From an uncultured bacterium (GTDB taxonomy: Bacteria; Patescibacteriota; Minisyncoccia; UBA6257; GWB1-50-10), in contig OY970216.1 in the NCBI GenBank assembly GCA_963713955.1, forward strand, positions 8,075-72,074: DNA of 64,000 nucleotides, in the 5' to 3' direction. The translations under genes and the position numbers were made by a program. This document shows positions 39,459-54,390 of the stretch, in pieces. Under the pieces are notes generated by a model, which saw only the letters and a program-made list of their open reading frames with translations, was not told the origin of the DNA and did not search any database. Position 1 is the stretch's first letter; each line of letters opens with the position of its first letter.

Positions 39459-39475
39459 TGAGCGGGTAAGGGGAG
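39459..39475. other. attL-like 17-bp direct repeat (TGAGCGGGTAAGGGGAG), identical to the 3' end of tRNA-Gly at 54300-54316
   Basis: Exact 17-nt identity with 54300-54316; the flanks are partly similar (ATCAAAC versus TCGAACC). Confidence 0.55.
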
Positions 39476-39590
39476 ATCAAACGTCGCTCCAATGTTACGT
39501 CATCGGAGCTCCCACGAACCCAGCGGTTCGTGTGCTCCGCGACGGGAAAACTCCCGTTTTCCCGACCCCTTTCCCGTTCGACTCCCCGAG

Positions 39591-39919
39591 GTGAATATTG
39601 AGTATTTATACGGAGCAGTTAAGACCTATTTTACCCAAAATTTCTGATTTTGGATACCCCCGAGCCTAGTCAATCACCCCGTCAATCACGATTGACTACC
39701 CTCACCCCTCTTTCGTCCAGATTCCACCGGGCTTTCCTCGAAAACCTTGTCCCCGACAATACTCGCCTCCGCCCCTTACCGGTGCGTCGGCTCGTCTCCC
39801 GCAGAGGCCGCCCCCATGGGAAGGGTCGAAGGGAAGGAATGGGGGGCGGCCTCTGCTTCACGTCGCGCGTCAGAGATGCTCCCGAGGCCGGATTGGAAAA
39901 GGGAAGCAAAAAGGAGGAG
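39591..39919. repeat. left copy of the roughly 330-bp near-perfect inverted repeat (partner at 51477-51804)
   Basis: The reverse complement of 51477-51804 matches almost base for base (the identical 82-aa ORF artefact MDTPEPSQ... appears in both copies). It contains the nested motif TAGTCAATCACCCCGTCAATCACGATTGACTA. Confidence 0.8.
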
Positions 39920-39959
39920 CGGCTTATAAGGCAGTGCGTTTTTCGGTATCATTAAGGGA

Positions 39960-40793
39960 ATGCCCCGATACCGCAAGAGATTCGAGAGGAGCAAGGAGCC
40001 GCCCAAGAATTTTCGCATCCAGACGCGCGACTACGGCCTCCTCGCTGACATAGCTGGCTATGGGGTGCTCTCGACCGAGCAGATTTTCGCGCTTCACAAG
40101 GGAGGAGAAAGGAATCTTCGGCGGAGATTGGCCGCGCTCTATCACTTGGGATACATCGAGAGACCGAAAGCGCAAAAACTGCTTCCTCCCGGGAGCTTCA
40201 TCATCTATTCCCTCGGCAGAAAAGGAGCGGAGCTCCTTCACCGCGAGGAGTCCGTCGGGAAAAGACACCGCGAGGTTTCCTTCCCTCATCTTTCCCACGC
40301 TTTGATGATCTCGAGGTTCCGGTCCATCCTCTCCCTCGCCTTGAAGGGCGGAGACAAGAAGATCGAGAAATGGATGCAGGGCAGGGAGTTGTACGATACG
40401 CTCTCCAAGCGGGAGAAGACCGACCTCGTTCCGGATGCTTTCTTCACGGTCGAGAGCAAAGAATACAAGTGGCCCTTCTTCCTCGAAGCGGACATGGGTA
40501 CGATGACGCGGACGAAGATGCTCGAAAAATACCGGACGTACTGGCGGTGGTGGCGGGAGAGGCGGCACGAGCATACGCTCGGCATACAGAGATTCCGCGT
40601 CCTCACGATCGCTCCCTCGGAGACGAGAACGGAGAATCTCGTGAAAGCCGCGAAGGAGGCCGACGACCGGAGAACCGGCAGCGACATGTTTCTCTTTTTA
40701 TCGGAGACTGCATACTCCTTGAAGGAGCCGGAAGAAATACTGAAGTCCGTCTGGCTTTCCGCGAAGGGCGGAAGGCACGGAATACTCGAATAA
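39960..40793 (+). CDS. replication-relaxation family protein (Replic_Relax-like, N-terminal HTH)
   Basis: RDYGLLADIAGYGVLSTEQIFALH matches the N-terminal motif of plasmid replication-relaxation proteins; 277 aa. Confidence 0.5.
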   Translation: MPRYRKRFERSKEPPKNFRIQTRDYGLLADIAGYGVLSTEQIFALHKGGERNLRRRLAALYHLGYIERPKAQKLLPPGSFIIYSLGRKGAELLHREESVGKRHREVSFPHLSHALMISRFRSILSLALKGGDKKIEKWMQGRELYDTLSKREKTDLVPDAFFTVESKEYKWPFFLEADMGTMTRTKMLEKYRTYWRWWRERRHEHTLGIQRFRVLTIAPSETRTENLVKAAKEADDRRTGSDMFLFLSETAYSLKEPEEILKSVWLSAKGGRHGILE

Positions 40794-40817
40794 CCCGCTC
40801 CATCGGACGGGTGGCTT

Positions 40818-41010
40818 CGCAACGCATACTCGTCAAAAGACCTGCGGCTTTTGGCTCGAGACTGCGTTCGCCGCCCTTCCGCTCTCGCTCGTCTGCCTTC
40901 GTTCAATGCACTTTCTCTTAATCGCGCTTGGATTCCTCGCTTCCGTGAGCCGCAATCTCCGCAACGCATACTCGCTGAAAACCTCTGGTTTCCAGTTCGA
41001 GACTGCGTTC
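40818..41010. repeat. two copies of a roughly 52-bp imperfect palindromic unit (iteron/operator-like), 142 bp apart, in a 465-bp non-coding stretch
   Basis: CGCAACGCATACTCG-N23-CGAGACTGCGTTC at 40818-40869 and again at 40960-41010 (about 80 percent identical to each other; each unit is an inverted repeat). Confidence 0.5.
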
Positions 41011-41258
41011 AATTGCGTCTCCCGTCGCTTAAAGGAAAAACGCGGGAGGCTTTAGGCTCAACGCTAAGCCCCGCGCATTTTTCCTTTCGCGGGGAGCGCG
41101 ACGGAGCGCGCCCCCCGTGCGATTCTGCCCTTGCCCCACCACGCCCGTGCGCGGGCAAGAACGCTCCCCGAAACTAGCAAAGGTTGACATTCTTTGATGG
41201 GATTTTGTAACATCCTCCCGACATCGTCCTTTCGGGCGGTGTACGGTGAGGGGGACTC

Positions 41259-41516
41259 TCACGAGTCCCCCTTGGTCTTTTCCGAAGTTACATCATTATC
41301 TGAAACCATTATCAACCTTATAACCCAATCTGAAAGCCAGACGGCTCCGGCTTGCTTCCCAGACTCTAGAAGAAACTGGTTCTGGGACGCGACAAGCGTT
41401 TCTTGAGTAGCGTTGGCGGATGACGGAGGCGCCGCATCGGTGGGAGACGACGCAAGTGCGATCTGTATGATCCAGAGAAGCAGAAAACCGATTACAACTC
41501 TCAAAAATTTCCCCAT
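41259..41516 (-). CDS. small secreted or membrane protein (pilin-like?), hypothetical
   Basis: 85 aa; signal/TM MGKFLRVVIGFLLLWIIQIALA plus a second mildly hydrophobic stretch. Confidence 0.3.
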   Translation of the reverse strand: MGKFLRVVIGFLLLWIIQIALASSPTDAAPPSSANATQETLVASQNQFLLESGKQAGAVWLSDWVIRLIMVSDNDVTSEKTKGDS

Positions 41517-41836
41517 GACTTTGAAGAAAAATTGGGTTGCTCGACCTTTATATTGGTTTATTAAAGAACTCCCCAGAGATTAAAAATCCCCCTGTCGCTC
41601 TTCGGTGGTACTTCAACCTGCGACAGGGGGTGTTTTGGTGCTAATTTTTTCGCTCTGCGCCAGAAATTTCTATCGAATAAACACCCTTAAGTTATGGTAA
41701 TGATAACAAACCGGTGGTGAAAGTCAACTTCGCTCTCCTAAAAACTTTGAATGTAGTAAAATAACTCCATATCCCTCGTGCCTCTTTCTCGGCACGACAC
41801 AAGGTCGAGAGTTCTATAAAAACAGCATAAAAATAC

Positions 41837-42541
41837 ATGTGGACGTTCATCTTAATCGTCATCGTAGCCGTCGTCGCGTGGAATGTGTACAAGAAAAAGC
41901 AAGAAGAACAGCAGGAAAGCGGAGCCTACGAGACCGCCGACGTCCCTCCGGAGCGGAAACACTTGAAACGGATGTCTCTCTCGGAGAAGTGGCGCACGGT
42001 GAGTAGCTGGACGACCCTCGTTCCCGGAGCAGAGGGAAAGGGAGATGCGATCTTCAAAGCCGCGAAGGAAAGTATCGGGAAAGCCGCGGCGCCGAACCTC
42101 GTAGTCGAGGAGCGGCGGGTTAGCGTAAACGACCTCGCGAAGAGGTACGGCGAGCGGCGGCTGCTCGTGGTCGAGAACCGGAAAATCCTCGGCTACTACG
42201 CCTTCGTCTCCGTCATGGATTACGGCCATCAGCTTTCCGTCTCGTGGTATCTTATGTTTCAGGAAAACTGGTTCACGAAGTTCATGAAGACCGCGGTCAA
42301 GGGCGGCGTGATCGCCTTCCTCGCCAACTGGTTCGTCGTAATCATGGCGAGAATCTTCTACGCCGCGAGGCGGTGCACCATCCCCGAACTCATGAACATC
42401 TTCGACGCGGAGGAATTGACCGCCTACACGACGACCGTCCACCACGCCGTAACGGGGGCGGTCGAGGAGCTGATGGGCGGCATGAACATGGACTTCTCGA
42501 GGGTGGACACGAGGTCGCGGGGATTTTTAAATATCTCTTAG
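41837..42541 (+). CDS. membrane protein; its stop lies one base before the ATPase start, so it may be the membrane half of a split coupling protein
   Basis: N-terminal TM (MWTFILIVIVAVVAW) and an internal TM (VIAFLANWFVVIMARIF). It ends at 42541 and the ATPase starts at 42543. Confidence 0.4.
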   Translation: MWTFILIVIVAVVAWNVYKKKQEEQQESGAYETADVPPERKHLKRMSLSEKWRTVSSWTTLVPGAEGKGDAIFKAAKESIGKAAAPNLVVEERRVSVNDLAKRYGERRLLVVENRKILGYYAFVSVMDYGHQLSVSWYLMFQENWFTKFMKTAVKGGVIAFLANWFVVIMARIFYAARRCTIPELMNIFDAEELTAYTTTVHHAVTGAVEELMGGMNMDFSRVDTRSRGFLNIS

Positions 42542-42542
42542 C

Positions 42543-43925
42543 ATGGCGGAACCGCGCATCTTCCGCCGCGAACCCAAGAGCGACGAACTCGCGCTGGGTT
42601 ACGCGTGGGGCGAGGACCAAAAAGGCGACCTCTGGCAATTGAAGGGCGTCGCGCAGGAAGACCGCGCCACCCATTTTTACGTGATCGGCGCATCCGGCAC
42701 TGGCAAGACGAAGTTCTTGGAATACATGATCGGGCAGGACATAGCGAACGGGGCGGGATTCGGTGTGATTGATCCCCATGGGGACTTGATCGAAGCCGTG
42801 AAAGAGCGGCTCGCGCTTTCCGGAGACGATCTCGAAAGCCGCGTCGTCCTTATCGACCCCACAGACAAGAAGAAGGTCGTCTCCTTCAATCCCCTCGAAC
42901 GGCTGGACGGTGTCTCCCCGGCGGAGCAGTCCGCCGAGCTCACGCTCGCGTTTAAAAAGATTTGGGCGGACGCGTGGGGCGCACGGATGGAGGACATTCT
43001 CCGCAATTCTTTCATCGCCTTGATTGAGAACGACCTCACCCTCGCGGAACTGCCCCTCCTGTTCGCCGATGCCGGACTCCGCGCGAAGCTCACGGCGAAC
43101 CTGAAAAACGAGACCGCGAGGGATTTCTTCCACAAGTTCGATTCGTGGAGCAAGACCTTGAAGAACGAGTGGACGGAATCCACCTTGAACAAGGTGAACG
43201 CCTTTTTGTCCGACGAGCGGGTGCGGGACATGTTTGTCTCGCCCAAAAGTTCCTTCAATCTGCGGGACGCGATTGATGCGGGAAAGATATTGTTGGTGAA
43301 ACTGGATAAGGGAAGATTGAAGGGCGCAAGCGACCTTCTGGGTTCGCTCATCTTGACGAAGCTCCAGATGGCCGCCTTCTCCCGGACGGACGTGAGAGAA
43401 TCCGAGCGCAAGCCCTTTTACTTGTACATCGACGAGTTCCAGAACTTCGCGACCGAGAGCTTCACGGACGTCCTCACGGAGGCGAGGAAATACAAGCTGT
43501 CACTTACGCTCGTGAACCAGAACTTGGGGCAGCTTCCCTCCGAACTCCGGGCTTCCATCCTCACGAACTGCGGGATACAGGCGTGTTTCCGCCTTTCCCG
43601 CTTCGATGCGGAGCTTCTCGCCAAAGAAGCGTTCGGCGGGGTGGCCGACGCGACCCCGCAATGGGAAAAAAAATTCCAGTTGCTCCAAGCCCTCCCTAGG
43701 CAGGTGTGCCTCGTGAAGAACAAGGCGGCGGGCGGGATTGTTCTTATCCGCGTGCCGGACATAGGAGACGGGATGGACGAGCGGGAGCTTGAGGCCGCCT
43801 TGCGGGAAGCAGGGATCGGAGAGAAATACCTCCGCAAACGGGACGAGATTAACAAGGAGTATCACAGAAGGCACGAGGCCTTAACGAAAACCGACGAGCC
43901 GGACGGGTTCAAGGAGAAAAGATAG
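42543..43925 (+). CDS. P-loop ATPase, TraD/TrwB/VirD4-like or HerA/DUF87-like (candidate DNA translocase / coupling protein)
   Basis: Walker A VIGASGTGKT; DPHGD motif; Walker B YLYIDEFQNF. Paralog of 50122-51420. Confidence 0.55.
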   Translation: MAEPRIFRREPKSDELALGYAWGEDQKGDLWQLKGVAQEDRATHFYVIGASGTGKTKFLEYMIGQDIANGAGFGVIDPHGDLIEAVKERLALSGDDLESRVVLIDPTDKKKVVSFNPLERLDGVSPAEQSAELTLAFKKIWADAWGARMEDILRNSFIALIENDLTLAELPLLFADAGLRAKLTANLKNETARDFFHKFDSWSKTLKNEWTESTLNKVNAFLSDERVRDMFVSPKSSFNLRDAIDAGKILLVKLDKGRLKGASDLLGSLILTKLQMAAFSRTDVRESERKPFYLYIDEFQNFATESFTDVLTEARKYKLSLTLVNQNLGQLPSELRASILTNCGIQACFRLSRFDAELLAKEAFGGVADATPQWEKKFQLLQALPRQVCLVKNKAAGGIVLIRVPDIGDGMDERELEAALREAGIGEKYLRKRDEINKEYHRRHEALTKTDEPDGFKEKR

Positions 43926-43940
43926 TATTTTTCTACACTG

Positions 43941-43969
43941 TTTGACATTATTGCTATATTATGGTATCA
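43941..43969 (+). promoter_or_regulatory. sigma70-like promoter upstream of the DGR target gene
   Basis: TTGACA, a 17-nt spacer, then TATCAT. AAGGAGG lies 5 nt before the ATG at 44038. Confidence 0.4.
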
Positions 43970-44037
43970 TATCAACATTCCTGAAACTTAGGAACGCATC
44001 TAAAAAACTTCATATTCACTAACCAAGAAAGGAGGCA

Positions 44038-44919
44038 ATGACGATGAATACTACATCGATCATGCCAATGACAGAAGGTCAAGAAAAGCAACTGAGTCGC
44101 GTCGTAATGGAGGACGAACTCTTTACACCGAAACCCACAAACGACGAAGCTCAGTGTCTTCTAAAGCACGGCAATATACTGCAAACGGCAGTCCGAATTT
44201 CCCGCAAGGAGATATTCGTCAAGTATCTCTACGCAGATGAGGAAAAATCGTCCGACTACACCTATCCCAAGGAATACAAGCGAAAATCAATCCGAGAGCA
44301 AATCGATATTCTTCTGGAGTGCTTCCCCGGATTGAACGCAACATGGGCTTTAATGAAGGGAGAAGCTTGGTACGACAGCCTGAAGAACTTGCCGGATTGG
44401 ATTGAAGGCCCGCTCGTCTATGTATGGTGGGAAATGTTCGGCAACTACAACGCCGCAACGGAACAGGTGCTCTCCGCTCTGGGGAAGAAGTACCAAAACT
44501 TCGTGAACTACCGGAACGGCCAGCTTGGACCAGAATACCTGCAACAGTCGAAAAAGACGACCGGTCTCGAAGCAAAGATTAAGAAGGACCAGCCTGGCGA
44601 TCTCATCATCGTCCCGAGTCAAGCCGGATTGCGCTGGAGGGGAAAATCTGTCCGTCGCGGCAGAGTCCTCTATGATCAGAACGAATTCGGTTCGGGAAGC
44701 GTCGCCGAAGGATGCCGAGTGCTGACCCATAATCGGTTCGTCCAATGGGAGCAACTGCACGTTGATTGCGGAGGAGACGAATACGCTCCTGAGGCCGATC
44801 GGGTTTTCTCGCACGCTCCGCACCTCTACTTCCTCGATAGCGAGATCGGGTTCGTCACGTACTGGATTGACTATGCCCATGGGCACTTCGGTTCGGCTTC
44901 CTCCCTTCTCCCGCAGTAA
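44038..44919 (+). CDS. DGR target (variable) protein; the C-terminal approximately 43 aa are encoded by the variable repeat
   Basis: The 3' end of the ORF (44787-44917) is the VR homologous to the TR. The gene has a strong RBS and promoter and is followed by a hairpin terminator. No signal peptide is evident. Confidence 0.7.
   Translation: MTMNTTSIMPMTEGQEKQLSRVVMEDELFTPKPTNDEAQCLLKHGNILQTAVRISRKEIFVKYLYADEEKSSDYTYPKEYKRKSIREQIDILLECFPGLNATWALMKGEAWYDSLKNLPDWIEGPLVYVWWEMFGNYNAATEQVLSALGKKYQNFVNYRNGQLGPEYLQQSKKTTGLEAKIKKDQPGDLIIVPSQAGLRWRGKSVRRGRVLYDQNEFGSGSVAEGCRVLTHNRFVQWEQLHVDCGGDEYAPEADRVFSHAPHLYFLDSEIGFVTYWIDYAHGHFGSASSLLPQ
44787..44917 (+). repeat. DGR variable repeat (VR)
   Basis: 131-bp alignment with TR 45299-45430: 17 mismatches, all at positions where the TR has A. 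The final approximately 30 nt are identical and GC-rich (IMH-like), ending at the target stop codon. Confidence 0.85.
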
Positions 44920-44992
44920 TCGAACATTGCACCTCGGACACTTGAACCTTTTGATGTCTTGTCCTTCGTTCCTTTCGTCCGCGTTATTTTTG

Positions 44993-45034
44993 AGAGGTTA
45001 TCCACACCATTGTGGGTAACCTCTTTATTTTTTA
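44993..45034 (+). terminator. hairpin plus T-run downstream of the VR/target gene
   Basis: AGAGGTTATCCACA-CCAT-TGTGGGTAACCTCT (14-bp stem with 1 mismatch) then TTTATTTTTTA. The stem contains a perfect TTATCCACA. Confidence 0.55.
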
Positions 45035-45298
45035 TAATCATGAATGAGACTAGGTTCATGAATGGCCGTCCACGGATTGCCGTCACCGAACTCCCTCTTC
45101 AATGAAGAGAAAAACAACCGGAATCTTAGCGACCACGGTTTCTAAGAGCGCGTTGTATTGAGGAGATTACTGCTTGTCCCCGTCTAGCGCAGGTTCCCGT
45201 TCGGGATGCTGCCGAATAAAATTCAGGATTGAGAGGATATAAGCTCCCCTTGAGCGGTAAACCTCGATTTCCAGTGATACGGACGGATGGGGGCAATG

Positions 45299-45430
45299 AT
45301 CCTGAGGCCGATCAAGTTTTCTCGCACGCTCCGAACCTCAACTTCAACGATAGCAAGATCAAGTTCAACACGAACTGGATTGACAATGCCAATGAGAACT
45401 TCGGTTCGGCTTCCTCCCTTCTCCCGAAGT
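45299..45430 (+). repeat. DGR template repeat (TR)
   Basis: Adenine-rich AAC/AAT/AAG-containing copy of the VR; the ORF-track entries 45229-45483(+) and 45223-45474(-) merely overlap it and are not believed to be genes. Confidence 0.85.
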
Positions 45431-45446
45431 CGCTCCTCAAGGAGGC

Positions 45447-45477
45447 AGAATGCCCGCGATTTATACGCGGGCATTCT
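45447..45477. terminator. strong hairpin between the TR and the avd stop (bidirectional terminator or TR-RNA 3' structure)
   Basis: AGAATGCCCGCG-ATTTATA-CGCGGGCATTCT, a 12-bp perfect stem. Confidence 0.5.
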
Positions 45478-45479
45478 CC

Positions 45480-45830
45480 TTAATTTTCTTTAGCCGATCT
45501 TATCCATCCGCCTAACATCCGGCCGATTTCATCCACGGAAGATTCGAGCGCCACATACTTTTTATTGTCTATGGTTTTCACTTCCTTCATGAGACGAAGA
45601 AAAACGCGCAGGAGATTAAGCTTGACGCTCGTCTTGTCTAAAACCGGCACTTTCTCCGATTTATAGAGTTTGCTGGCCGTAAGTATCCCCTCAAGAATTT
45701 CGAGTGTTAGTTCTTCCGATCTCTGCCAGATGGCGTACCGGTCTTGCTTGGGAACAATTGTGCGATAACCATAAAATGTTTTGTATAAGTCATAAGTTTT
45801 CTTGAATATGGGTATGTCAAAATCATCCAT
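45480..45830 (-). CDS. avd: Avd-like accessory variability determinant (four-helix-bundle, 23S rRNA-IVS protein family)
   Basis: 116 aa; C-terminal EIGRMLGGWIRSAKEN closely resembles the Bordetella phage bAvd C-terminus EVGRILGSWIARVNRK; it lies between the TR and the RT. Confidence 0.7.
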   Translation of the reverse strand: MDDFDIPIFKKTYDLYKTFYGYRTIVPKQDRYAIWQRSEELTLEILEGILTASKLYKSEKVPVLDKTSVKLNLLRVFLRLMKEVKTIDNKKYVALESSVDEIGRMLGGWIRSAKEN

Positions 45831-45844
45831 AAGTTTTACGCCAC

Positions 45845-46870
45845 ATGAAAACCTGCAAAAACATTTTTGAAAAGATAATCTCGCCAGAAAATCTTTTTTT
45901 GGCTTGGGACGCGTTCAAAGGCGACAAGCGGAATAAACCTGACGTTCTCCGGTTTGAATGGAATCTGGAACAGAACATTTTCCGGTTGCACGGAGATTTG
46001 AAAGATAGAACCTACCAGCATGGCCCCTATGCGAGCTTTTACATCAACGATCCGAAGCAGCGCCACATTCATAAGGCGACGGTTCGAGACAGGATTCTGC
46101 ATCACGCGGTTTTCTCGGTTATAAATCCAGTCTTCGAGCCGACCTTCATTCCGACTTCTTTTTCTTGTCGCATCGGATACGGCACTCATAAGGGTGTCGA
46201 GACTCTGGAAGAGATGATAAGAAGGGTAAGTAGGAATAATACGGCTCCCTGTTTTGTCTTGAAATGCGATGTTCAGAAATTTTTTGCGAGCGTAAGCCAC
46301 GAAATTCTGCTCTCCATTCTGGAAAAGAGAATTAAAGACGATGATGCAATGTGGCTTATGGGAAGCATCGTTAAAAGCTATGAGAGCGTGTCCAGGCGAG
46401 GCATCCCCATAGGGAATTTGACCTCCCAGCTCTTTGCCAACGTCTACATGAACGAACTTGATCAGTTTATGAAGCACGTGTTGAAGGTAAAATATTACAT
46501 TCGCTACACCGACGACTTCGCCGTAGTCGCTGGAGATAAAAAATATTTAGAAGAACTCCTGCCGCTTATATCCAAATTTCTTGAAAATAAACTCGCTCTC
46601 AAATTACATCCTAATAAAACCATATTTTTATCAATATGTCAAGGCGTAGATTTCCTCGGATACGTGATTTTCCCAAAACATAGACTTATCCGGTTACAGA
46701 CAAAGCATCGGATGTTTAAGAAATTGGAAAAACTGATGGAAGAATACAAAGCTGGAAATATCACCAAATTAAACTTCGAGCAGTCTCTCCAGTCTTATCT
46801 GGGTGTCTTATCTCATGCGGATACCCACACGATACGGGAAGAACTGTTGAACAAGTTCTGGATTTCTTAA
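45845..46870 (+). CDS. DGR-type reverse transcriptase
   Basis: RT motifs including IPIGNLTSQLFANVY (the DGR-specific I/LGxxxSQ in place of the group II QGxxxSP) and YIRYTDDFAV (YxDD); 341 aa with no maturase or endonuclease domains. Confidence 0.9.
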   Translation: MKTCKNIFEKIISPENLFLAWDAFKGDKRNKPDVLRFEWNLEQNIFRLHGDLKDRTYQHGPYASFYINDPKQRHIHKATVRDRILHHAVFSVINPVFEPTFIPTSFSCRIGYGTHKGVETLEEMIRRVSRNNTAPCFVLKCDVQKFFASVSHEILLSILEKRIKDDDAMWLMGSIVKSYESVSRRGIPIGNLTSQLFANVYMNELDQFMKHVLKVKYYIRYTDDFAVVAGDKKYLEELLPLISKFLENKLALKLHPNKTIFLSICQGVDFLGYVIFPKHRLIRLQTKHRMFKKLEKLMEEYKAGNITKLNFEQSLQSYLGVLSHADTHTIREELLNKFWIS

Positions 46871-46895
46871 CCTACGCTCCGCCTTTTTACCGACA

Positions 46896-47261
46896 TTACG
46901 TCTCTTCCTTTTCACGCTTCGGCGTCTCGTGCGGTATCTTTGCCGTATTGATTCCGATCTTCGCCATTCTTCCGCCTCCCGAGAAGAGGAGGAAGACAAA
47001 AAGATATTGGAGAACGATGTCCCCGAGCTTCCCGATGCTTTGGGAGACGACCGGAGGCACGCCGACCGATGTTTCTCCGAGATGGACGTTATTCACCGAA
47101 ACCGTGCTTTGCGCCGCGTCTCCTTTCCCTTCAAGAATGGAGGGGATATTGTTTCCGTGGAACACGCTGAACCCGTACCAGACGCCAAACCCGATTATCG
47201 CCGCTCCTCCTATAATGAGGATTAAGCTTAGGATGACGTAGTATTTCTCCTTGTGCTTCAT
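46896..47261 (-). CDS. small membrane protein, hypothetical
   Basis: N-terminal TM (YYVILSLILIIGGAAIIGFGVWYGF) and a C-terminal hydrophobic segment. Confidence 0.35.
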   Translation of the reverse strand: MKHKEKYYVILSLILIIGGAAIIGFGVWYGFSVFHGNNIPSILEGKGDAAQSTVSVNNVHLGETSVGVPPVVSQSIGKLGDIVLQYLFVFLLFSGGGRMAKIGINTAKIPHETPKREKEET

Positions 47262-47377
47262 TGAATTTTGATTATCCCGGCGCTATACAGGCCGAATTCG
47301 GCGAGCCAGAGCGCGGCGGATACCAGCACCCAGAACCACCAACGCAGATAGAGTTTGACTTTGGGTTTTTCGTTCAT
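47258..47377 (-). CDS. 39-aa single-TM micro-protein (not in the ORF track; ATGA-coupled to the downstream gene)
   Basis: MNEKPKVKLYLRWWFWVLVSAALWLAEFGLYSAGIIKIQ. Confidence 0.25.
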   Translation of the reverse strand: MNEKPKVKLYLRWWFWVLVSAALWLAEFGLYSAGIIKIQ

Positions 47378-47393
47378 GATATTTGTTTCAACG

Positions 47394-47546
47394 TCAGCTT
47401 AACGGCTGGTGCAGCGCAAGACGGATCGCACTAACGATAGCCGCAGCCACCAGCCAGCCGACAGCGAGCGCGGAAACGACCTTGAGAACTATTTTAACAA
47501 CCAACCAAAATTTCTTCATGGGTCCGTTTTTGGTTTTTCCGTCCAT
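47394..47546 (-). CDS. 50-aa single-TM micro-protein (not in the ORF track)
   Basis: MDGKTKNGPMKKFWLVVKIVLKVVSALAVGWLVAAAIVSAIRLALHQPLS. Confidence 0.25.
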   Translation of the reverse strand: MDGKTKNGPMKKFWLVVKIVLKVVSALAVGWLVAAAIVSAIRLALHQPLS

Positions 47547-47550
47547 AAGT

Positions 47551-47766
47551 TTATTTCGCATTGTTCAACGACGCAGAACTTAGAATGAAGTTCTGGATGA
47601 TGGGGCATCGCTCCGCTTCGTCCGCCGGAACGGTGAACGTGGCGTCCGGCTGGTATTCCTTGAAAGCGCAGTCCACGAGCGAAGGCGACGGCCCCGTTTT
47701 CCAGAGGAGGGTTACGGCGACCAGCAATACTACGATTATTCCCACTAACCAGATGAGAGATTTCAT
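47551..47766 (-). CDS. 71-aa small membrane/secreted protein
   Basis: MKSLIWLVGIIVVLLVAVTLLW TM or signal; overlaps the stop of the upstream gene. Confidence 0.3.
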   Translation of the reverse strand: MKSLIWLVGIIVVLLVAVTLLWKTGPSPSLVDCAFKEYQPDATFTVPADEAERCPIIQNFILSSASLNNAK

Positions 47767-48734
47767 TTCGTGAGGTTAATTGGAGCCATGATGATGGTAT
47801 CGCTCGCCCCGCCTTCATCGCCCATGGGGAGCAAGAAAGTTCCGCCACCCCTGTAGAGTTTGCCGTAGTCTCCCTGCTTGTACGAAATGATGGTGTAGCT
47901 CGGCTCGTTCATTATCATCGCGCCGTTTTCGTTCGTGCAGGTTGTGTTAATGGACAATATGCTGTCCGGCGTGAAGTAGGCGGTATTCGTGCTCGTGCTC
48001 TTGAGCGCGACCCAGCCGTTGTTCGCCACGCTGAAAGAGCATCCACTCTTATTCGCGCTCATCGTCACCTTGATCCTTGCGGGTCCGAAGACGTTCAGTC
48101 CTCCCCAGTTGGAGTTTATGATCCCATCGGACTCCAGCACTTCGGCCGAGACGCTCACGTCCTTCGCCGTTGACGATGCCGCAAAGGCGCCGGTCTTCGG
48201 AAGATCGGCACCCCCCGCCGCGTTCACCGCCGCGTCTTCCTCGCTCTTCACATACAGGGCGAGCTTGAACGTTGCGTCCGTGAACTCCTTGACGGCGGGG
48301 CAGCTGTTTAACTTTATGTTTTCGTCAGGCGTGAGGCCGAAGGACGAATCGTTCAAGTATTTGTTCATGTCCGAACCCAAGGCGTCCTTGAGACACTGCT
48401 GCACCGACGGAGGAGCGCCCGTCGAGAGAGTGAGCGCCGTGGTGCTCGTGTTCACGCAGCCGCTACTGCTCATAAGCTTTTGGGTCGAACTGGTTACAAT
48501 CCCTTCGCTGTATGCGGCATTGAAGGCATCGCCCATCTTGGACTGGAGGCAGGCCACGAACTCACTGCTCGTCGAGTAGAGGTCGATAAACGCTTGGAAC
48601 GGGTTCGGCTTCACGACTTGGGGGAGCTTGGCGGCGGCGAATTGCTGGACGGGGCGGTACAGCAAGAAGGCGGTTGCTCCCGCCGCAACAATTACGACGA
48701 TGACTACGCCTAAAATTATTTTGTTTTTGTTCAT
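47763..48734 (-). CDS. N-terminally anchored extracellular Ser/Thr-rich protein, hypothetical
   Basis: TM IILGVVIVVIVAAGATAFLLY, then a 300-aa Cys-containing beta-rich domain. Confidence 0.4.
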   Translation of the reverse strand: MNKNKIILGVVIVVIVAAGATAFLLYRPVQQFAAAKLPQVVKPNPFQAFIDLYSTSSEFVACLQSKMGDAFNAAYSEGIVTSSTQKLMSSSGCVNTSTTALTLSTGAPPSVQQCLKDALGSDMNKYLNDSSFGLTPDENIKLNSCPAVKEFTDATFKLALYVKSEEDAAVNAAGGADLPKTGAFAASSTAKDVSVSAEVLESDGIINSNWGGLNVFGPARIKVTMSANKSGCSFSVANNGWVALKSTSTNTAYFTPDSILSINTTCTNENGAMIMNEPSYTIISYKQGDYGKLYRGGGTFLLPMGDEGGASDTIIMAPINLTK

Positions 48735-48845
48735 AAATTTTTAAAGAAAAAAGCTAACCGGCGGGTTCGACGTTTAGCTTTGTGCAGAAACACAAAGCCC
48801 CCAGCCAGTGATCCCTTGCGAGACCCATACCAGTTTCCCGATATG

Positions 48846-48895
48846 ACGATTGCGCGTGCTCTGACTAGGAGCTTTCTATGCGCAATCGTTTTTTA
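48846..48895 (+). terminator. plus-strand hairpin plus T6 in a 380-bp ORF-free gap between two minus-strand genes (candidate sRNA 3' end)
   Basis: ACGATTGCGC-N24-GCGCAATCGT followed by TTTTTT. Confidence 0.3.
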
Positions 48896-49112
48896 AACCC
48901 TGCCGCAGGCTTTCCTACGGGTTAGGTCTCATATGAAATTGTATGGAGTCAATAGTAACACAACGGCAGGAAAAGGCAAGATTAAAAACGCCCGATTTTA
49001 TATGAAATATCAGGCGGTTGTTACCATAGTCGGCTTGCTCCTTGTATATAAGTTTGCTATACTTTAGTTAACGTAGCAACGAAATGAACAAGCTTTACGA
49101 TATAGTTCAGTA

Positions 49113-49880
49113 CTAGTTGGCTGGTATCGCCAGCTCTACGGCGAACGTGTCTTTTGCTATTCGCTCCGTACCCTTAAATGGCTCTACCAAGTCGTCAAAG
49201 TAATGTAAATTTTCCGGCCGAAGAGTCTCGGATAGATAAGCTTCAGCTCGCGTTTTATCGGCGATGTAATCTTTGGCTAGCTCCCTGTTTTCAGGTTTTT
49301 CTAAAAATCCTTTAAACTGCTTCGGGGTTAACGTACCTCTGTAATAACCCCATTTCCTCGTTAGACAATGTACGAGGTTGTTTTCATTTATAAGCAACTC
49401 GCGGAGTATTCTTTTCTTTAAATCCTTCTCGCCTATCTTGTTTATATCTATCTCATCGATATATGCGATAGCATCCCTGAAAGAAAGCAAGGCATTATTT
49501 ATTTGAGCCAATCTTTTGGAGCCGTGTTTAATACCCTTGTCATGGGCGGCTCCATCGCGGACATTCTCGTATTCATAAATCTCCAAGTGAGATATTCCTA
49601 AAGTGCGGGCCATCTGCGATTTGGATATGCTTCTCTCTTTCTCCCAGTTCTTTGCGTTCTCCTCTAAAATCTGTTTTCTTAATGCCTCGATTTCCTCTCC
49701 GGTCATCTGGAGCAAAAGGTAATTCGCCGCTCCCACGAGTGCTATGATCAGAGCGAGAAACGCCATGAGATTTAAAGCGTCTCCCGGCGAGAAAACTTTA
49801 GGCCATATAAAAGCAGCGAATCCCATTAAGACAACGGCAGCGAGAAATAACCCGATAATCCACCAAAATGTAACTTTCAT
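49113..49880 (-). CDS. membrane protein with a cytoplasmic helical domain, hypothetical
   Basis: Two N-terminal TM helices; ...SQMARTLGISHLEIYEYE is an HTH-like segment. Confidence 0.4.
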   Translation of the reverse strand: MKVTFWWIIGLFLAAVVLMGFAAFIWPKVFSPGDALNLMAFLALIIALVGAANYLLLQMTGEEIEALRKQILEENAKNWEKERSISKSQMARTLGISHLEIYEYENVRDGAAHDKGIKHGSKRLAQINNALLSFRDAIAYIDEIDINKIGEKDLKKRILRELLINENNLVHCLTRKWGYYRGTLTPKQFKGFLEKPENRELAKDYIADKTRAEAYLSETLRPENLHYFDDLVEPFKGTERIAKDTFAVELAIPAN

Positions 49881-50121
49881 ATATAAGCTTATTTTTTAAC
49901 AAACCCCTTAGGCTCTTATTATACCACCCCCGTTTGACACCAGCCCACCAAAAATGGTATCCACTATCAGCCCATTACCTCCCCCGCCCGAGCCAATCGG
50001 TGCGGAGGAAGGCGGAGCGCAGGAGAGCTTGCCTTCCGCCTGCCGCAAGATAATCGCTCCCGGTTGTCTTGCGGAGGAATGAAGCTCGTATCATAAAAGA
50101 TATACAATAAAGGGACGCAAC

Positions 50122-51420
50122 GTGCGCCCCTTTTTGTATTTTCTGATGGACGACATCCTCCCCATCGGCAGGACGACCTCCCATTCGAGCGGGCTTGTCT
50201 TCGGAATCCGGACGAGAGACCGGCGACACCACATGTATGTCGTGGGGCAGACCGGCACGGGAAAATCGACTTTGCTCAAGAATATGGCGATAACGGACAT
50301 CCGGGGCGGGCGCGGCTGCGCCGTGATAGACCCGCACGGGGAACTCGTCGAGGACATCCTTAACTTCATTCCTTCTAAGAGGGCGAACGAAGTCGTGTAT
50401 TTCAATCCCTCGGATGTCGAGAATCCCATCGGCTTGAACATTCTCGAAGCGAGGGACGAGGAGGAAAAGCAACTGGTCGCCTCGTCCTTGATCTCGGTAT
50501 TCAAACACCTATGGAAGGGGTTCTGGGGGCCTCGGCTGGAACACGTCTTCCATAACGCCATATTAGCTCTTATGGATACGCCGGGGAGCACCCTCCTCGG
50601 CGTTTATCGTATGCTCGCGGACGACGATTACCGCCGCCTCGTCGTTTCCCACGCGAAAGACCCCATAGTTAGGTTGTTCTGGGAAAAGGACTTCGACGAA
50701 TATCCGCCTCAATTCCGCAAAGAGGTCGCCTCTCCTATCCAGAACAAGATCGGGCAATTGCTCACGAACACGCCCTTGCGGAATATCGTGGGACAGACGA
50801 CGAGCACGATTGATCTCAAATACATCATGGATAACCGGAGAGTCCTTCTCGTGAACCTCGCGAAAGGCAGAATCGGAGAAGACAAGGCGAACCTTCTCGG
50901 GTCCGTCCTCGTTACCAAGCTCTATTTGGCCGCTTTGGAGAGGCAGGCGATCCCGGAGGAGGAACGCAAGGACTTCTACCTCTACGTTGACGAGTTCCAG
51001 AACTTCTCGACGGACGTGTTTCCTTCGATACTCTCGGAGGCGAGGAAATACCGGCTGAACCTCATCTTGGCTCACCAGTATCTCCACCAGTTGACCGACG
51101 AGGTGCGGCACGCCGTCTTCGGAAACGTGGGCACTTTGGTCGCTTTCCGCGTGGGGAGCATAGACGCGGAGGAACTCGCAAGAGAGTTCCTGCCCTCGTT
51201 CGGGAGGAGCGACCTCGAATGCGAGGACAACTACCACACTTATATTAAATTGATGATCGACGGCAAGCGTTCGCTTCCCTTCTCGGCGGAAACGCTCCCG
51301 CCCCTCTGCCTTATGGGCGACGAGGCGAAGAAAGACATTCTGATTCAGGTTTCACGGGAGCGTTTCGCTTCAAAAAGATGCGAGATCGAATCCAAAATCG
51401 AAAAATGGATTGGCAGGTGA
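50122..51420 (+). CDS. P-loop ATPase, paralog of 42543-43925 (TraD/VirD4- or HerA-like)
   Basis: VVGQTGTGKST, DPHGE, YLYVDEFQNF; roughly 45 percent identical to the first ATPase. Probably a GTG start. Confidence 0.55.
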   Translation: MRPFLYFLMDDILPIGRTTSHSSGLVFGIRTRDRRHHMYVVGQTGTGKSTLLKNMAITDIRGGRGCAVIDPHGELVEDILNFIPSKRANEVVYFNPSDVENPIGLNILEARDEEEKQLVASSLISVFKHLWKGFWGPRLEHVFHNAILALMDTPGSTLLGVYRMLADDDYRRLVVSHAKDPIVRLFWEKDFDEYPPQFRKEVASPIQNKIGQLLTNTPLRNIVGQTTSTIDLKYIMDNRRVLLVNLAKGRIGEDKANLLGSVLVTKLYLAALERQAIPEEERKDFYLYVDEFQNFSTDVFPSILSEARKYRLNLILAHQYLHQLTDEVRHAVFGNVGTLVAFRVGSIDAEELAREFLPSFGRSDLECEDNYHTYIKLMIDGKRSLPFSAETLPPLCLMGDEAKKDILIQVSRERFASKRCEIESKIEKWIGR

Positions 51421-51476
51421 TCCATTTTTCGCTCGTTTGTTCCTCGGCCATGCGGGCCTTGAGCTGTTTTTTTATT

Positions 51477-51804
51477 TCCTCCCTTTTTCCTTCCCTTTTC
51501 CTTCCGGCCTCGGGAGCATCTCTGACGCGCGACGTGAAGCAGAGGCCGCCCCCCATTCCTTCCCTTCGACCCTTCCCATGGGGGCGGCCTCTGCGGGAGA
51601 CGAGCCGACGCACCGGTAAGGGGCGGAGGCGAGTATTGTCGGGGACAAGGTTTTCGAGGAAAGCCCGGTGGAATCTGGACGAAAGAGGGGTGAGGGTAGT
51701 CAATCGTGATTGACGGGGTGATTGACTAGGCTCGGGGGTATCCAAAATCAGAAATTTTGGGTAAAATAGGTCTTAACTGCTCCGTATAAATACTCAAGTT
51801 TCAC
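51477..51804. repeat. right copy of the roughly 330-bp inverted repeat
   Basis: Reverse complement of 39591-39919. Confidence 0.8.
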
Positions 51805-51986
51805 ACAAAGGTTATTTTCCCCAAAATTTTCACGGGCTTCGCGGAGCGAAGCATAAGGTTTGATGGGGCTAAATACGATGCGACGGTTTTTTAGAGAGAG
51901 GTTCGAGAGTTAAGGGTATAACACTTGCCCCACACCACCCGTGCGCGTGTTATGAATCTTGCTGATTTGATAATCAGCTACTCCCT

Positions 51987-52526
51987 TTAGATCACTAACT
52001 TCCCGTTATTTGCGACATATGCGGATAAGGTTATCAGATTCGTAATTGCGATGACGAAATTCGTTTTGTGGAGAGTTTGGCCGACACCCAAATTATCCAA
52101 ATCTTTTGCGTGTTGCTTCTCGTGGAAATAATAGCCATAGAGCCATTTCTTTATCACGTCCTCGCCAGTTTCAGATTTACTATTAATAATCATTTTTATG
52201 GTGGGTTCTTTCATTAGTGATGCGTAGATATCCTTACATTTTTGAAGATTATTAATGATCTTCTGATCTGTAGTATTGGCGATAAGCAAATCGCAGATAT
52301 CCGGCAGATACACACCATCTTTCTTAAGAGTAAATTTCCTCAAGTCCAAAAGCATTGAACGCAAATCTTCCTCATCGAAGCCCGTGGTTTCTTGCTTGAG
52401 AGGTTGTCCTGCTTCAAAGTTTAATTGATAGCCGACTTTTTTGGTTTCCCTCGTAAACCTTGCGTTCTTCACTTTTTCAACGATAGAAATAAACTGCTCG
52501 ACCTTCTCCTTATTTGACGGGTTCAT
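51987..52526 (-). CDS. hypothetical protein (element cargo)
   Basis: 179 aa; AT-rich gene with no recognisable motif. Confidence 0.35.
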   Translation of the reverse strand: MNPSNKEKVEQFISIVEKVKNARFTRETKKVGYQLNFEAGQPLKQETTGFDEEDLRSMLLDLRKFTLKKDGVYLPDICDLLIANTTDQKIINNLQKCKDIYASLMKEPTIKMIINSKSETGEDVIKKWLYGYYFHEKQHAKDLDNLGVGQTLHKTNFVIAITNLITLSAYVANNGKLVI

Positions 52527-52532
52527 GTCTAA

Positions 52533-52760
52533 TTATAAAAGGTCTTTAGGTCTTATACCTAACGCTTTTGCAATCTTTTCTATGTTCTTGAGTGTTGGGT
52601 TTCTTTCGCCGCGCTCTATCTGACTGATATAGGTTGAATGAACGCCCAAACTTCTCGCAATATCTCCTTGCGATAATTGCTTCTTGAGGCGGATGGCCTT
52701 GATCTGCTTTCTAACTCTTGTGGATATGTCCGTGTTCGCCATTGTTTTCATTATTATCAT
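52533..52760 (-). CDS. XRE-family (Cro/cI-type) HTH transcriptional regulator
   Basis: LSQGDIARSLGVHSTYISQIERGERNPTLKNIEKIAKALG. Confidence 0.75.
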   Translation of the reverse strand: MIIMKTMANTDISTRVRKQIKAIRLKKQLSQGDIARSLGVHSTYISQIERGERNPTLKNIEKIAKALGIRPKDLL

Positions 52761-52812
52761 AACAGTTGCCGTGCTATTGCTCTATGGAACGCAAATGCTC
52801 TATAATAGAACC

Positions 52813-54390
52813 ATGTCTACTTACTTCCTCTACGCCCGCAAATCGACCGACGTTGAAGACAAGCAAGTCCGGTCGATTGACGATCAGCTTTCAGTGCTTC
52901 GTACCCTTGCAAAAGACGAGGGACTACACATCGTTTCCGAGTTTGTGGAGAAGCAGTCCGCCAAGATGCCCGGTCGCCCCGTATTCAATAACATGCTTTC
53001 CCGCATTGAGAAAGGAGAGGCGCAAGGCATCGTCTGTTGGAAACTAGATCGGCTTGCCAGAAATCCGGCGGACGGCGGCACGATACAATGGATGCTCCAG
53101 CGGGGCATCATCCAACATATCCAAACCTACGAAAAGAGTTATAAGACAGCCGACAACACGCTATTGATGAGCGTGGAGTTCGGGATGGCGAACCAGTTCA
53201 TTCTTGACTTGGCTGCGAACACCAAGCGCGGCCTCTATGAGAAAGTGAAGCGTGGCGAATATCCTTCGCTTGCCCCTATCGGATACTTGAACGACCGGGT
53301 GAGGAAAACCGTCGTTGTGGACAGGGCGACGGCGAAGATCGTCCGTGCCGCGTTTGAACTCTATGCCGAAGGCAACTCACGATTGGAAGACATATCCGCA
53401 TTTTTTGCCAAACATCACATCTATTCCGAGAACGGCAAACCTTTGAAACGCGACCGGATAACCTACATCCTCTCGAATCCCTTTTATATCGGTTTCTTCC
53501 GCTACGCAAAAGAGCTTCACGAGGGAAAGCACAAGCCCCTCATTTCCAAGACTCTTTTCGACAAGGTGCAAGCCGTCTTAAAAGGGAGGGGCAGACCTCA
53601 TCACAAATTGCAGAACGAGCCGAAACCTCTTTGCGGACTGCTCTACTGCGCCGAGTGCGGATGCGCGATCACCGGAGAGGAAAAGGTGAAGCACCAGAAG
53701 AACGGCAACGTCCACACCTACCGCTATTATCGTTGCACGAAAAAGAAAGGTGCCTGTTCCCAGCCAAACGTTCGAGAGGAAAACCTTACTTTGCAACTAT
53801 CCGAGGCTATCAGACCATTCGCCCTTCCGTACGAATGGGCGGCGGAGCTTTCAAAGAAAGCTGATATGGATGAGCAAGTTACCCTCACATCTTCCGCCGC
53901 CCAGAGCCAAACGATACGGGACGAGATAACGGCCGTTTCCCAAAAGATCAAGCGACTTCACGCGATGTATCTAGACCAAGACATTGAACGGGAAAGCTTC
54001 CTTGAGGAGAAGGCGAATCTGCTTTCCCAGAAGAAGTCGCTCACGGAGAAAATGGCTGATGTTTCAAAGGGGGTGATCGCTTGGCTCGAACCGATGCGGG
54101 AATGGATAAAAGACGCGTCAAATCTGAACGATTTCGACGAAACCGCCTCTCTTTCCCTCACTAAGTCGTATACTCTTAAAATTTTCGGCTCGAACCTCTC
54201 TCTAAAAAACCGTCGCATCGTATTTAGCCCCATCAAACCTTATGCTTCGCTCCGCGAAGCCCGTGAAAATTTTGGGGAAAATAACCTTTGTGTGAAACTT
54301 GAGCGGGTAAGGGGAGTCGAACCCCTCTCATCAGCTTGGAAAGCTGAGGTAATGCCGATATACGATACCCGCCAACATCTTTTATCTTAA
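52813..54390 (+). CDS. large serine recombinase (resolvase catalytic domain, recombinase domain, zinc ribbon)
   Basis: YARKSTDVEDKQVRSIDDQ (catalytic Ser), APIGYLNDR, CAECGC...C zinc ribbon. Start set at MSTYFLY. The last approximately 30 codons are antisense to tRNA-Gly. Confidence 0.8.
   Translation: MSTYFLYARKSTDVEDKQVRSIDDQLSVLRTLAKDEGLHIVSEFVEKQSAKMPGRPVFNNMLSRIEKGEAQGIVCWKLDRLARNPADGGTIQWMLQRGIIQHIQTYEKSYKTADNTLLMSVEFGMANQFILDLAANTKRGLYEKVKRGEYPSLAPIGYLNDRVRKTVVVDRATAKIVRAAFELYAEGNSRLEDISAFFAKHHIYSENGKPLKRDRITYILSNPFYIGFFRYAKELHEGKHKPLISKTLFDKVQAVLKGRGRPHHKLQNEPKPLCGLLYCAECGCAITGEEKVKHQKNGNVHTYRYYRCTKKKGACSQPNVREENLTLQLSEAIRPFALPYEWAAELSKKADMDEQVTLTSSAAQSQTIRDEITAVSQKIKRLHAMYLDQDIERESFLEEKANLLSQKKSLTEKMADVSKGVIAWLEPMREWIKDASNLNDFDETASLSLTKSYTLKIFGSNLSLKNRRIVFSPIKPYASLREARENFGENNLCVKLERVRGVEPLSSAWKAEVMPIYDTRQHLLS
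54302..54372 (-). tRNA. tRNA-Gly (anticodon TCC)
   Basis: GCGGGTA-TC-GTA-TATCGGCAT-TAC-C-TCAGC-TTTCCAA-GCTGA-TGAG-AGGGGTTCGACTCCCCT-TACCCGC-T. The acceptor, anticodon and T stems are perfect; the D-stem has 3 bp. Confidence 0.7.

Follow-up and report, generated by a model that had tools for sequence, protein, structure and literature searches.

The DNA studied here, a stretch of 64,000 nt from contig OY970216.1 of an uncultured member of the Patescibacteria (referred to as the window), raises the question of why a block of genes should be enclosed by two long and nearly identical sequences in inverted orientation. Our analysis places the block in an element of 14.7 kb (39598–54303), which is probably an integrative mobilizable element (IME) with a transfer module and an integration module. 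The structure that we favor is that of a mobilizable element with two inverted units, each combining an attachment site (attP) with a putative origin of transfer (oriT), one unit having probably been split when a large serine recombinase (LSR) integrated the element.

The arms of the reported repeat, named IR1 here, lie at 39591–39918 on the forward strand and 51477–51804 on the reverse strand. A repeat search gives them a length of 328 nt, 97% complementarity, and a spacing of 11,558 nt, and IR1 is the longest repeat of any kind found by scanning the whole window. The match is exact over a core of 295 nt (39598–39892 and the reverse complement of 51503–51797), with mismatches and indels confined to the last ~25 nt at the inner end and to 2 nt at the outer tip. 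An exact inverted match of 295 nt within 64 kb cannot have a chance origin. The preliminary description of this DNA, in which the repeat was placed at 39591–39919/51477–51804 with an identity above 95%, is borne out on both points, as the divergence stays under 5%. It had also called an open reading frame (ORF) shared by the two copies spurious. This ORF (39650–39955, forward strand) crosses the left arm, and its first ~81 codons are common to the other arm. Copies of the window element (L001, L003, and L004) not being counted, its sole match outside the element is a stretch of 38 residues with 58% identity in the equivalent arm region of the closest relative, L005. As this match is itself arm DNA (~70% identical to the window) and the arm alignments are rich in indels, the shared ORF is most likely non-coding.

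Scanning the whole window also uncovered a second repeat, IR2, which the preliminary description had overlooked. IR2 is a perfect (100%) inverted repeat of 115 nt, with a left arm at 51793–51907 (reverse strand) and a right arm at 54189–54303 (forward strand). The left arm abuts the outer tip of the right IR1 arm without a spacer, the two arms bracket a helix-turn-helix (HTH)/serine recombinase module, and the right arm, the right end of the element, ends exactly at the 3′ end of a tRNA-Gly(tcc) gene (54301–54372, reverse strand, from the tRNA call). The 115-nt unit of IR2 is named A, the ~300-nt unit of IR1 is named B, and together, as A·B, they span ~410 bp. With rc for reverse complement, the order of the element is flank / B – relaxase...T4CP2 – rc(B)·rc(A) – HTH, serine recombinase – A / tRNA, in which T4CP2 is the second of two ATPases resembling type IV coupling proteins (T4CPs). 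The interval 51477–51907 is one uninterrupted rc(B)·rc(A) unit, a candidate second attP, in which the outer ends of the two repeats overlap at CTCAA (51793–51797). The other A·B unit is split exactly at the A/B joint, which has the core TTGAG, by the junctions with the chromosome. The left IR1 arm had been described as lying inside the element; its outer tip is instead the left junction of the element, and the arm ends 42 nt upstream of the relaxase start codon.

The junction sequences relate the split unit to the intact one. Read in the A-to-B direction, the interior joint is ...GTGAAACTTGAG/TATTTATACGG (aacTTGAG/TATTT), the left-end junction is ...GTGAATATTGAG/TATTTATACGG (ataTTGAG/TATTT), and the tRNA junction is ...GTGAAACTTGAG/CGGGTAAGGGG (aacTTGAG/CGGGT). 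Because the TTGAG core is common to all three, the interior joint can be read as the attP-like parent and the ends of the element as its halves joined to the chromosome. On the left, the core at 39598–39602 (forward strand) marks the attL junction, and we place the crossover of the recombinase within it.

The layout was then followed in relatives of the element, assembled from a relaxase alignment against GTDB species genomes, exact-protein look-ups, and one metagenome locus, with 139 loci fetched in total. All close relatives are in metagenome-assembled genomes of Patescibacteria. An IR1-type repeat flanks the segment from the relaxase to T4CP2 in 13 distinct elements (the window, L006, L007, L008, L017, L018, L025, L040, L050, L051, L132, L134, and L136), which stem from different studies and whose assemblies were made with SPAdes or MEGAHIT, from long reads, or at JGI. 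The repeat is 260–350 nt long in this family, one arm ending 60–100 nt upstream of the relaxase gene and the other just past the terminator of the last T4CP-like gene. Wherever the locus extends far enough, a second repeat of 114–169 nt abuts the first, brackets the HTH/recombinase module, and has its outer end flush with the 3′ end of a tRNA gene. The insertion sites of the relatives comprise 11 different identified tRNA 3′ ends and a truncated tRNA in L007, and the LSR gene, at its 3′ end, borders on or overlaps with the tRNA that serves as target.

Six elements are fully resolved: that of the window, L051 (in tRNA-Gly ccc, core GAG), L007 (in the truncated tRNA, core TGTGG), L025 (in tRNA-Gly gcc, with a 26-nt imperfect overlap at the core), L136 (in tRNA-Val, core GTGG), and L008 (in tRNA-Ser, with the relaxase module in the opposite orientation). 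The attL and attR sites lack long direct repeats, the cores measuring only 3–5 nt (TTGAG, GAG, TGTGG, and GTGG). Two deletion derivatives, L137 and L138, keep the arrangement rc(B)·rc(A) – LSR module – A / tRNA. Minimal relatives composed of a relaxase and a recombinase (the first element of L010, and L014) have a single B...A layout without an internal copy, and L015 and L028 have the same gene order as these, the assignment being judged on gene order alone. A composite, decayed relative beside a tRNA-Gly(tcc) gene (L050, 5973–20650) has its relaxase module between two full A·B units and also contains two mirror-image recombinase modules, 77% identical to each other, in which both recombinase genes are truncated; recombination between two elements seems to have produced it.

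An origin of the repeat in assembly, as a falsely duplicated or folded-back contig segment, has to be considered, because assemblers can create perfect repeats and short-read contigs break at these arms: the Logan contigs stop ~30 nt inside each IR1 arm. Such ends are the expected behavior at a true repeat. An independent metagenome contig in the European Nucleotide Archive (ENA), contig_143291, has the identical arrangement with 99.94% identity, so that two assemblies agree; the arms differ from each other in a structured way at their inner ends; and 13 elements with different sequences, put together by several assemblers, share the architecture. The artefact named in the preliminary description as a possible undoing of the repeat has, in our estimation, a negligible chance of being real.

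The suggestion that the arms are the terminal inverted repeats (TIRs) of a nested transposon or linear replicon draws on the simple fact that long, near-perfect inverted repeats bracket a block of genes. No target-site duplication accompanies them, the flanking sequences (...gaatat on one side and agtttc... on the other) not being duplicated, and genes for a transposase, a terminal protein, or a DNA polymerase are absent from the block; a Pfam search of the element genes found no transposase domains. Furthermore, the right arm continues directly into repeat A, the other copy of which is at the tRNA junction, and in every fetched locus that extends beyond a B-like arm the arm adjoins A-type sequence or the LSR module. 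We regard TIRs as highly improbable. The layout is a conserved design, not a nested transposon and not an assembly error.

How such a design could arise is suggested by the enzyme encoded at its right end. The LSR of the window (52693–54390, forward strand) has 565 residues with Resolvase (PF00239), Recombinase (PF07508), and Zn_ribbon_recom (PF13408) domains and is Ccr/XisF-like, the nearest NCBIfam models being CcrB and XisF. In the mechanism that we propose, the free form of the element would be a circle in which two inverted ~410-bp A·B units separate the transfer module from the integration module. Unit A (115 nt) would supply the left attP arm together with the 3′ end of the LSR gene, and unit B (~300 nt) would supply the right arm of attP, the triple repeat and highly conserved block described below, and the leader of the relaxase operon. 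The LSR would recombine the A/B joint of one unit with an attB composed of the 3′ end of tRNA-Gly(tcc) and the sequence downstream of it, splitting the unit at TTGAG and sending B to the left end and A to the right end, with the other unit (51477–51907) left intact inside. The split layout observed in the window is the expected product of LSR integration through one of two inverted attP copies. The target tRNA gene itself remains intact, and the LSR ORF traverses arm A and the att core and then continues for 29 codons into tRNA-Gly antisense (54304–54390). As the ORF of the excised form would end 18 codons into arm B, integration would change the C-terminal tail of the LSR.

A candidate attB can be reconstructed from the two chromosomal flanks. 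The left flank, designated U (39476–39597, no strand assigned), would form its left half. Part of U resembles DNA downstream of an unoccupied tRNA-Gly in L006, and U is for this reason probably native chromosome. U contains an inverted copy of the tRNA T-arm, GTTCGACTCCCC, at 39576–39587, and the reconstructed site, GTTCGACTCCCC-22 nt-GGGGAGTCGAAC, is a palindrome with 12-nt arms, made from the T-arm of the tRNA and its inverted copy in the flank, with its center inside TTGAG. The empty site is predicted to read CCCCGAGGTGAATATTGAGCGGGTAAGGGGAGTCG. The interior joint has a symmetry of its own in the window and L051, consisting of 17-nt imperfect dyad arms, AAATTTTGGGGAAAATA and TATTTTACCCAAAATTT, that are symmetric to within 2 nt of the joint.

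Fragments of the tRNA-Gly gene also occur near the junctions. An orphan 17-nt copy of its 3′ end, TGAGCGGGTAAGGGGAG (39459–39475, reverse strand), is a direct repeat of 54300–54316 and sits 120 nt to the left of the element as delimited here, outside it, with the 12-nt inverted T-arm copy directly at the junction. A comparable partial copy of tRNA-Gly lies directly against the outer end of one of the A arms of L050. Earlier insertions may have left these fragments behind, or they may be secondary attB sites. Boundaries at the 17-nt direct repeats (39459/54300), in the manner of a tyrosine integrase, were considered for the element and are not preferred: no tyrosine integrase is present, the relatives lack such repeats, and the arm tip coincides with the interior joint.

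Arm B appears to contain more than an attachment site, as read from an alignment of ten B arms. Nearest the att core is a conserved GAACCYATTTTAnCAAAAA block, which in the window and L051 makes up one half of an imperfect dyad whose other half is the end of A. Farther in, at 39667–39698 (forward strand), alignment and pattern search identify the motif TAGTCAATCACCCCGTCAATCACGATTGACTA, whose reverse complement is at 51697–51728; exact copies of GTCAATCAC are confined to the two IR1 arms. The preliminary description had seen a nested palindrome in each arm and suspected a protein-binding site. The palindrome is present and is better described as a triple repeat, with two direct copies of GTCAATC and one inverted copy. 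The repeated word varies from element to element (GTCAATC in the window, and TAGTCATTC, CCCCTTCATTC, CCCCATCATGC, CCCCTTCAAAT, and TAGTCGTT in others), and all three copies change together, the behavior of a specificity-determining protein-binding site. Of 30 family members from Patescibacteria, 19 have a triple repeat at a distance of 310–390 nt upstream of the relaxase gene, against about zero in shuffled sequences. The conservation and covariation thus make the predicted protein-binding role probable.

The gene that follows arm B, which had been called RepL, encodes a Replic_Relax (PF13814) relaxase of the MOBC family (39960–40793, forward strand; Pfam E = 2.7e-24, 86.7 bits against a cut-off of 25.3). 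PF13814 corresponds to the MOBC family of relaxases (CONJscan MobC) (PMC5357655), which has a PD-(D/E)XK fold (PMC5357655, PMC3424549, PMC6736028); a search with the relaxase profile against solved structures gave no match at E ≤ 0.1. Because the covarying triple repeat lies upstream of a MOBC relaxase gene, arm B is a candidate oriT; it likely carries the origin, with the triple repeat as the relaxase recognition site. The window would accordingly hold two inverted copies of the candidate oriT motif, one in each arm. The most conserved block of arm B, CCCCGACAATACTC (39751–39764, forward strand), conforms to CCCCGACwwyACTC and is nearly invariant across the ten aligned arms; that it is the nic region can only be guessed. 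Arm B also contains a 15-bp GC-rich hairpin, GAGGCCGCCCCCAT...ATGGGGGGCGGCCTC (39804–39853, forward strand), located by sequence reading and folding. Neither arm matched Rfam at E ≤ 1 and a scan of B for intrinsic terminators found none; a non-coding RNA in arm B, considered as a candidate, was rejected on the Rfam result and on a folding z of -0.5, which is not unusually structured.

Arm A contains a hairpin of its own, GCTTCGC-nnn-GCGAAGC, at 54229–54245 and 51851–51867, ~50 nt from the att core. In the A arms of L007, L008, L025, L051, L136, and L138 the hairpin is kept with compensatory changes, as in L007 (GCCGCGCC..GGCGCGGC) and L008 (GCTTCAC..GTGAAGC).

A comparison of arms within and between elements bears on how the repeat is maintained. 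The two arms are 98–100% identical within 12 of the 13 elements and 93% identical in the decayed L050. Between elements, B arms align over short stretches only, at ≤80% identity (78% over 51 nt between the window and L051), and the relaxases of the same elements are still 45–60% identical to that of the window and the T4CP2 proteins up to 82%. As the arms match within an element and barely align between elements whose relaxases remain recognizably related, the duplication is older than the divergence of the elements, its copies having been homogenized; the pattern indicates that the arms evolve in concert. Diverged arms are seen in mosaic or decayed elements (80% identity in L047, 93% in L050, and 93% in L009). 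Recombination or gene conversion would uphold the identity of the arms and would occasionally invert a module.

Inversion of the segment between the arms had been raised as a possibility in the preliminary description, and this idea holds in part. In L008, the relaxase module is opposite in orientation relative to the recombinase and the tRNA. As this layout is the very outcome expected of recombination between B arms, inversion has happened at least once; the other five of the six fully resolved elements keep the orientation of the window. The recombinase module is never flipped, the gene reading into the tRNA-side arm in nine of nine cases. With regard to the window element itself, the ENA contig has the same orientation, so that both assemblies show a single one, and the Logan contigs end within the arms and thus carry no orientation signal. 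Inversion more likely proceeds by homologous recombination between the perfect arms of ~300 bp.

The same description had raised the alternative that the arms are sites of a programmed inversion, in which the adjacent serine recombinase would switch the block containing the relaxase and a diversity-generating retroelement (DGR). The recombinase gene is indeed only 0.9 kb from the right arm, the arms are perfect, and L008 provides an example of the opposite orientation. The enzyme is, however, an integrase-type LSR (565 aa, Recombinase plus Zn_ribbon, Ccr/XisF-like) rather than a small invertase of the Hin/Gin type. The crossover of this enzyme maps not within the arms but at their outer tip, the A/B joint, where the two sites differ in the integrated state: the left tip is a hybrid of the attL type, the interior tip is of the attP type, and no large serine recombinase is known to recombine such a pair. 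An inversion would bring no promoter to a new gene, since the identical arms both face inward, and a single orientation prevails in five of six resolved and seven of seven partly resolved elements. Programmed inversion by the adjacent recombinase therefore seems to us improbable; a frequent flip-flop is not supported, and there is no sign that the recombinase drives inversion.

Integration of a double-attP/oriT element through one of its units remains the interpretation that we prefer, and several observations weigh against it. No excised circle or empty attB was found in the collections searched (GTDB relatives, IMG/VR, and metagenomes), which is an absence of data; a scan of IMG/VR with the relaxase alignment for circular or viral forms returned nothing, and homologues of the genes flanking the element in the window are absent from all 139 fetched loci, although this search by synteny was not a dedicated search for the empty site. 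The split copy is the one that the LSR gene reads into in all six resolved elements and in three partial ones, which makes random use of two equivalent attP copies unlikely; the interior copy may be inactive, or there may be a cis-preference. As the minimal relatives have no internal copy, it is not needed for integration as such. The flipped orientation of L008 is the sole case, one among six resolved elements, with the other five and all seven partly resolved elements matching the window. A sigma-70 promoter scan of B found none. The dyad at the interior joint is clear only in the window and L051, is weak in L007, L025, and L008, and is 2–6 nt off the mapped crossover. Finally, the orphan tRNA-Gly fragment at 39459–39475 would also fit a longer element between 17-nt direct repeats.

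Some of these points are shared with the view that the internal A·B is a neutral relic of one ancient inverted duplication, homogenized by gene conversion of the host and without a role in transfer or integration. Elements such as the first of L010 and L014 (and, by gene order, L015 and L028) manage without the internal copy, the split copy is always proximal to the LSR gene, as though the interior copy were unused, and the arms diverge in the mosaic and decayed elements L047, L050, and L009. Against a neutral relic, the layout has been kept in 13 elements despite near-complete turnover of the arm sequences, with relaxases that are 45–60% identical to that of the window; the retention of a perfect inverted repeat of 300–400 bp, a recombination hazard, argues for selection; and the boundaries of the arms are constant, each arm starting at the att core and reaching to just before the relaxase leader in one case and to the T4CP2 terminator in the other. 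A neutral relic is in our view unlikely, albeit deserving of some weight.

If the duplication is not neutral, the inverted doubling of attP and oriT might be a functional requirement of a previously undescribed class of mobile elements in Patescibacteria, a proposal that is speculative and to which we attach a rather low probability. The single strand that is transferred might, for instance, fold back on itself through the ~410-nt repeat, which would restore a duplex att/oriT, expose arm mismatches to repair, and explain both the perfect arms of intact elements and the diverged arms of decayed ones. Another possibility is that two inverted origins let either strand leave with the recombinase module leading. 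If true, fold-back or two-origin export would be a strategy of transfer or maintenance not known from characterized integrative and conjugative elements (ICEs) or IMEs.

The closest parallel that we found for the doubled end is in plasmids. The IncX plasmids have a pair of oriTs in long inverted repeats, a feature that is said to be known from these conjugative plasmids only (PMC3402527). In R6K, pOLA52, and R485, as with the candidate origins of the window, two inverted copies of the transfer origin lie in long inverted repeats, one of them beside the relaxase gene. IncX plasmids differ in having the TaxC relaxase, a pir/repX replicon, a non-integrating lifestyle, and repeats without an attachment site, whereas the repeat of the window includes attP, one of its copies is split by chromosomal integration, and the relaxase is of the MOBC family; protein searches of the element found no replicon genes, and there is no homology between the two.

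Among LSR elements, Tn5397 (TndX), SCCmec (Ccr), and the streptococcal IMEs resemble the element of the window in the LSR located at the end, a core of a few nucleotides, site-specific insertion, and a relaxase without a type IV secretion system (T4SS) in the element. The window differs from them in its target, the extreme 3′ end of tRNA genes, and in an LSR ORF that crosses the att core, and no second inverted attP is reported to lie inside Tn5397, SCCmec, or the streptococcal IMEs. A literature search for inverted or second attP sites turned up only engineered cassette-exchange systems.

The relaxase is of the same family (PF13814/MOBC) as TraX of pAD1 and MobC of CloDF13, from which the window system differs in its Patescibacteria host, its duplicated origin, and the lack of detectable similarity to solved structures. 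The oriT2 of pAD1, reportedly described by Francia and Clewell in 2002, is said to join an inverted repeat with short, specificity-determining direct repeats, and by analogy the triple repeat of the window may play a similar role.

The overall plan, two unique segments between identical inverted repeats, with concerted evolution and two orientation isomers, is also that of the yeast 2-micron plasmid and of plastid genomes. FLP of the 2-micron plasmid recombines within the repeats, and flipping of that plasmid is frequent and has a function, whereas in the elements described here flipping looks rare and the site of the recombinase serves integration. The Hin/Gin/Cin systems, shufflons, and invertons likewise have inverted repeats beside a serine recombinase gene. 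The repeats of these systems, however, are 14–35 bp long and are the substrates of small invertases assisted by an enhancer, in contrast to arms of ~300 bp, an integrase-type LSR, and an orientation that is nearly fixed among relatives.

In the literature searched we found no description of the duplicated-end layout, and the only characterized parallel found is the IncX double oriT. A census of Patescibacteria from 2025, limited to counts of MOBC relaxases and stray T4CP genes, reports MOBC as the commonest relaxase class, often next to a t4cp gene, and describes no element architecture (PMC12102498). The layout may have gone unnoticed because perfect repeats of ~300 bp break short-read assemblies. 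The Patescibacteria, or candidate phyla radiation (CPR), make up a large share of bacterial diversity, and the movement of their mobile elements is almost unknown. The window and its relatives represent a concrete, recurrent type of element, with mapped junctions, a candidate oriT, a MOBC relaxase, two T4CP-like ATPases, and an LSR that targets tRNA genes. Recombinases with short mapped cores at many tRNAs may, in addition, serve as a set of natural site-specific integrases.

The remaining genes of the element fall into the two modules. In the transfer module, all on the forward strand, the relaxase gene is followed by a conserved 234-aa protein (41837–42541), which precedes T4CP-like ATPase 1 (42543–43925, identified by protein family searches), and the last gene is T4CP-like ATPase 2 (50122–51420). 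Downstream of the latter is a terminator composed of the hairpin CTCGGCC...GGCCTTGAG and a run of seven T residues, which is kept in relatives. The integration module, between the A arms, comprises a 179-aa protein (51987–52526, reverse strand), an HTH_3 regulator (52533–52760, reverse strand), and the LSR. Neither VirB4 nor any other T4SS family was found among the main ORFs of the element, in which the two T4CP-like ATPases are the only ones of their kind, and PHROGs and NCBIfam searches with the element proteins of 179, 234, 255, 323, 121, 85, and 108 aa gave nothing useful. The genes outside the element are housekeeping genes, encoding RNase Y, iPGM, a sigma factor, SecG, and SBP.

Homologues of T4CP-like ATPase 2 are widespread. 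A metagenome scan with the T4CP2 alignment returned 80 loci, 79 of them without a relaxase or repeats, and only L051 was informative. Proteins 50–59% identical to the ATPase give more than 580 metagenome matches, and the contexts L052–L130 have no relaxase or repeats; these orphan T4CP2-like genes fit the excess of orphan VirD4-like genes reported for Patescibacteria (PMC12102498).

The cargo between the two ATPase genes includes a DGR and an RNA. The DGR (44038–46870, forward strand) consists of a target gene (44038–44919) with the variable repeat (VR, 44787–44917), the template repeat (TR, 45300–45430), the Avd gene (45480–45830, reverse strand), and the reverse transcriptase gene (RT, 45845–46870). 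The window and the ENA contig differ at 12 positions over 29960–50794, one at 39243 and the other 11 in the VR (44801–44885). The concentration of differences in the VR suggests active diversification of the target by the DGR in this population. The RNA (48810–48928, reverse strand) is a LOOT RNA (RF03000; Rfam 83 bits, E = 1e-14). As it carries the DGR and the LOOT RNA, the element therefore spreads accessory functions in reduced genomes.

LOOT RNAs are located within the relaxase/T4CP module of three different elements, namely those of the window, L013 (7837–7956), and L132 (13845–13971), with scores of 83–89 bits. From this distribution, the RNA may belong to these elements and not to the host. 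Another RNA, a group I intron (RF00028, 72 bits), is found at 19211–19483 of L025, between two tRNA genes just outside the element, the host in this case belonging to the Doudnabacteria.

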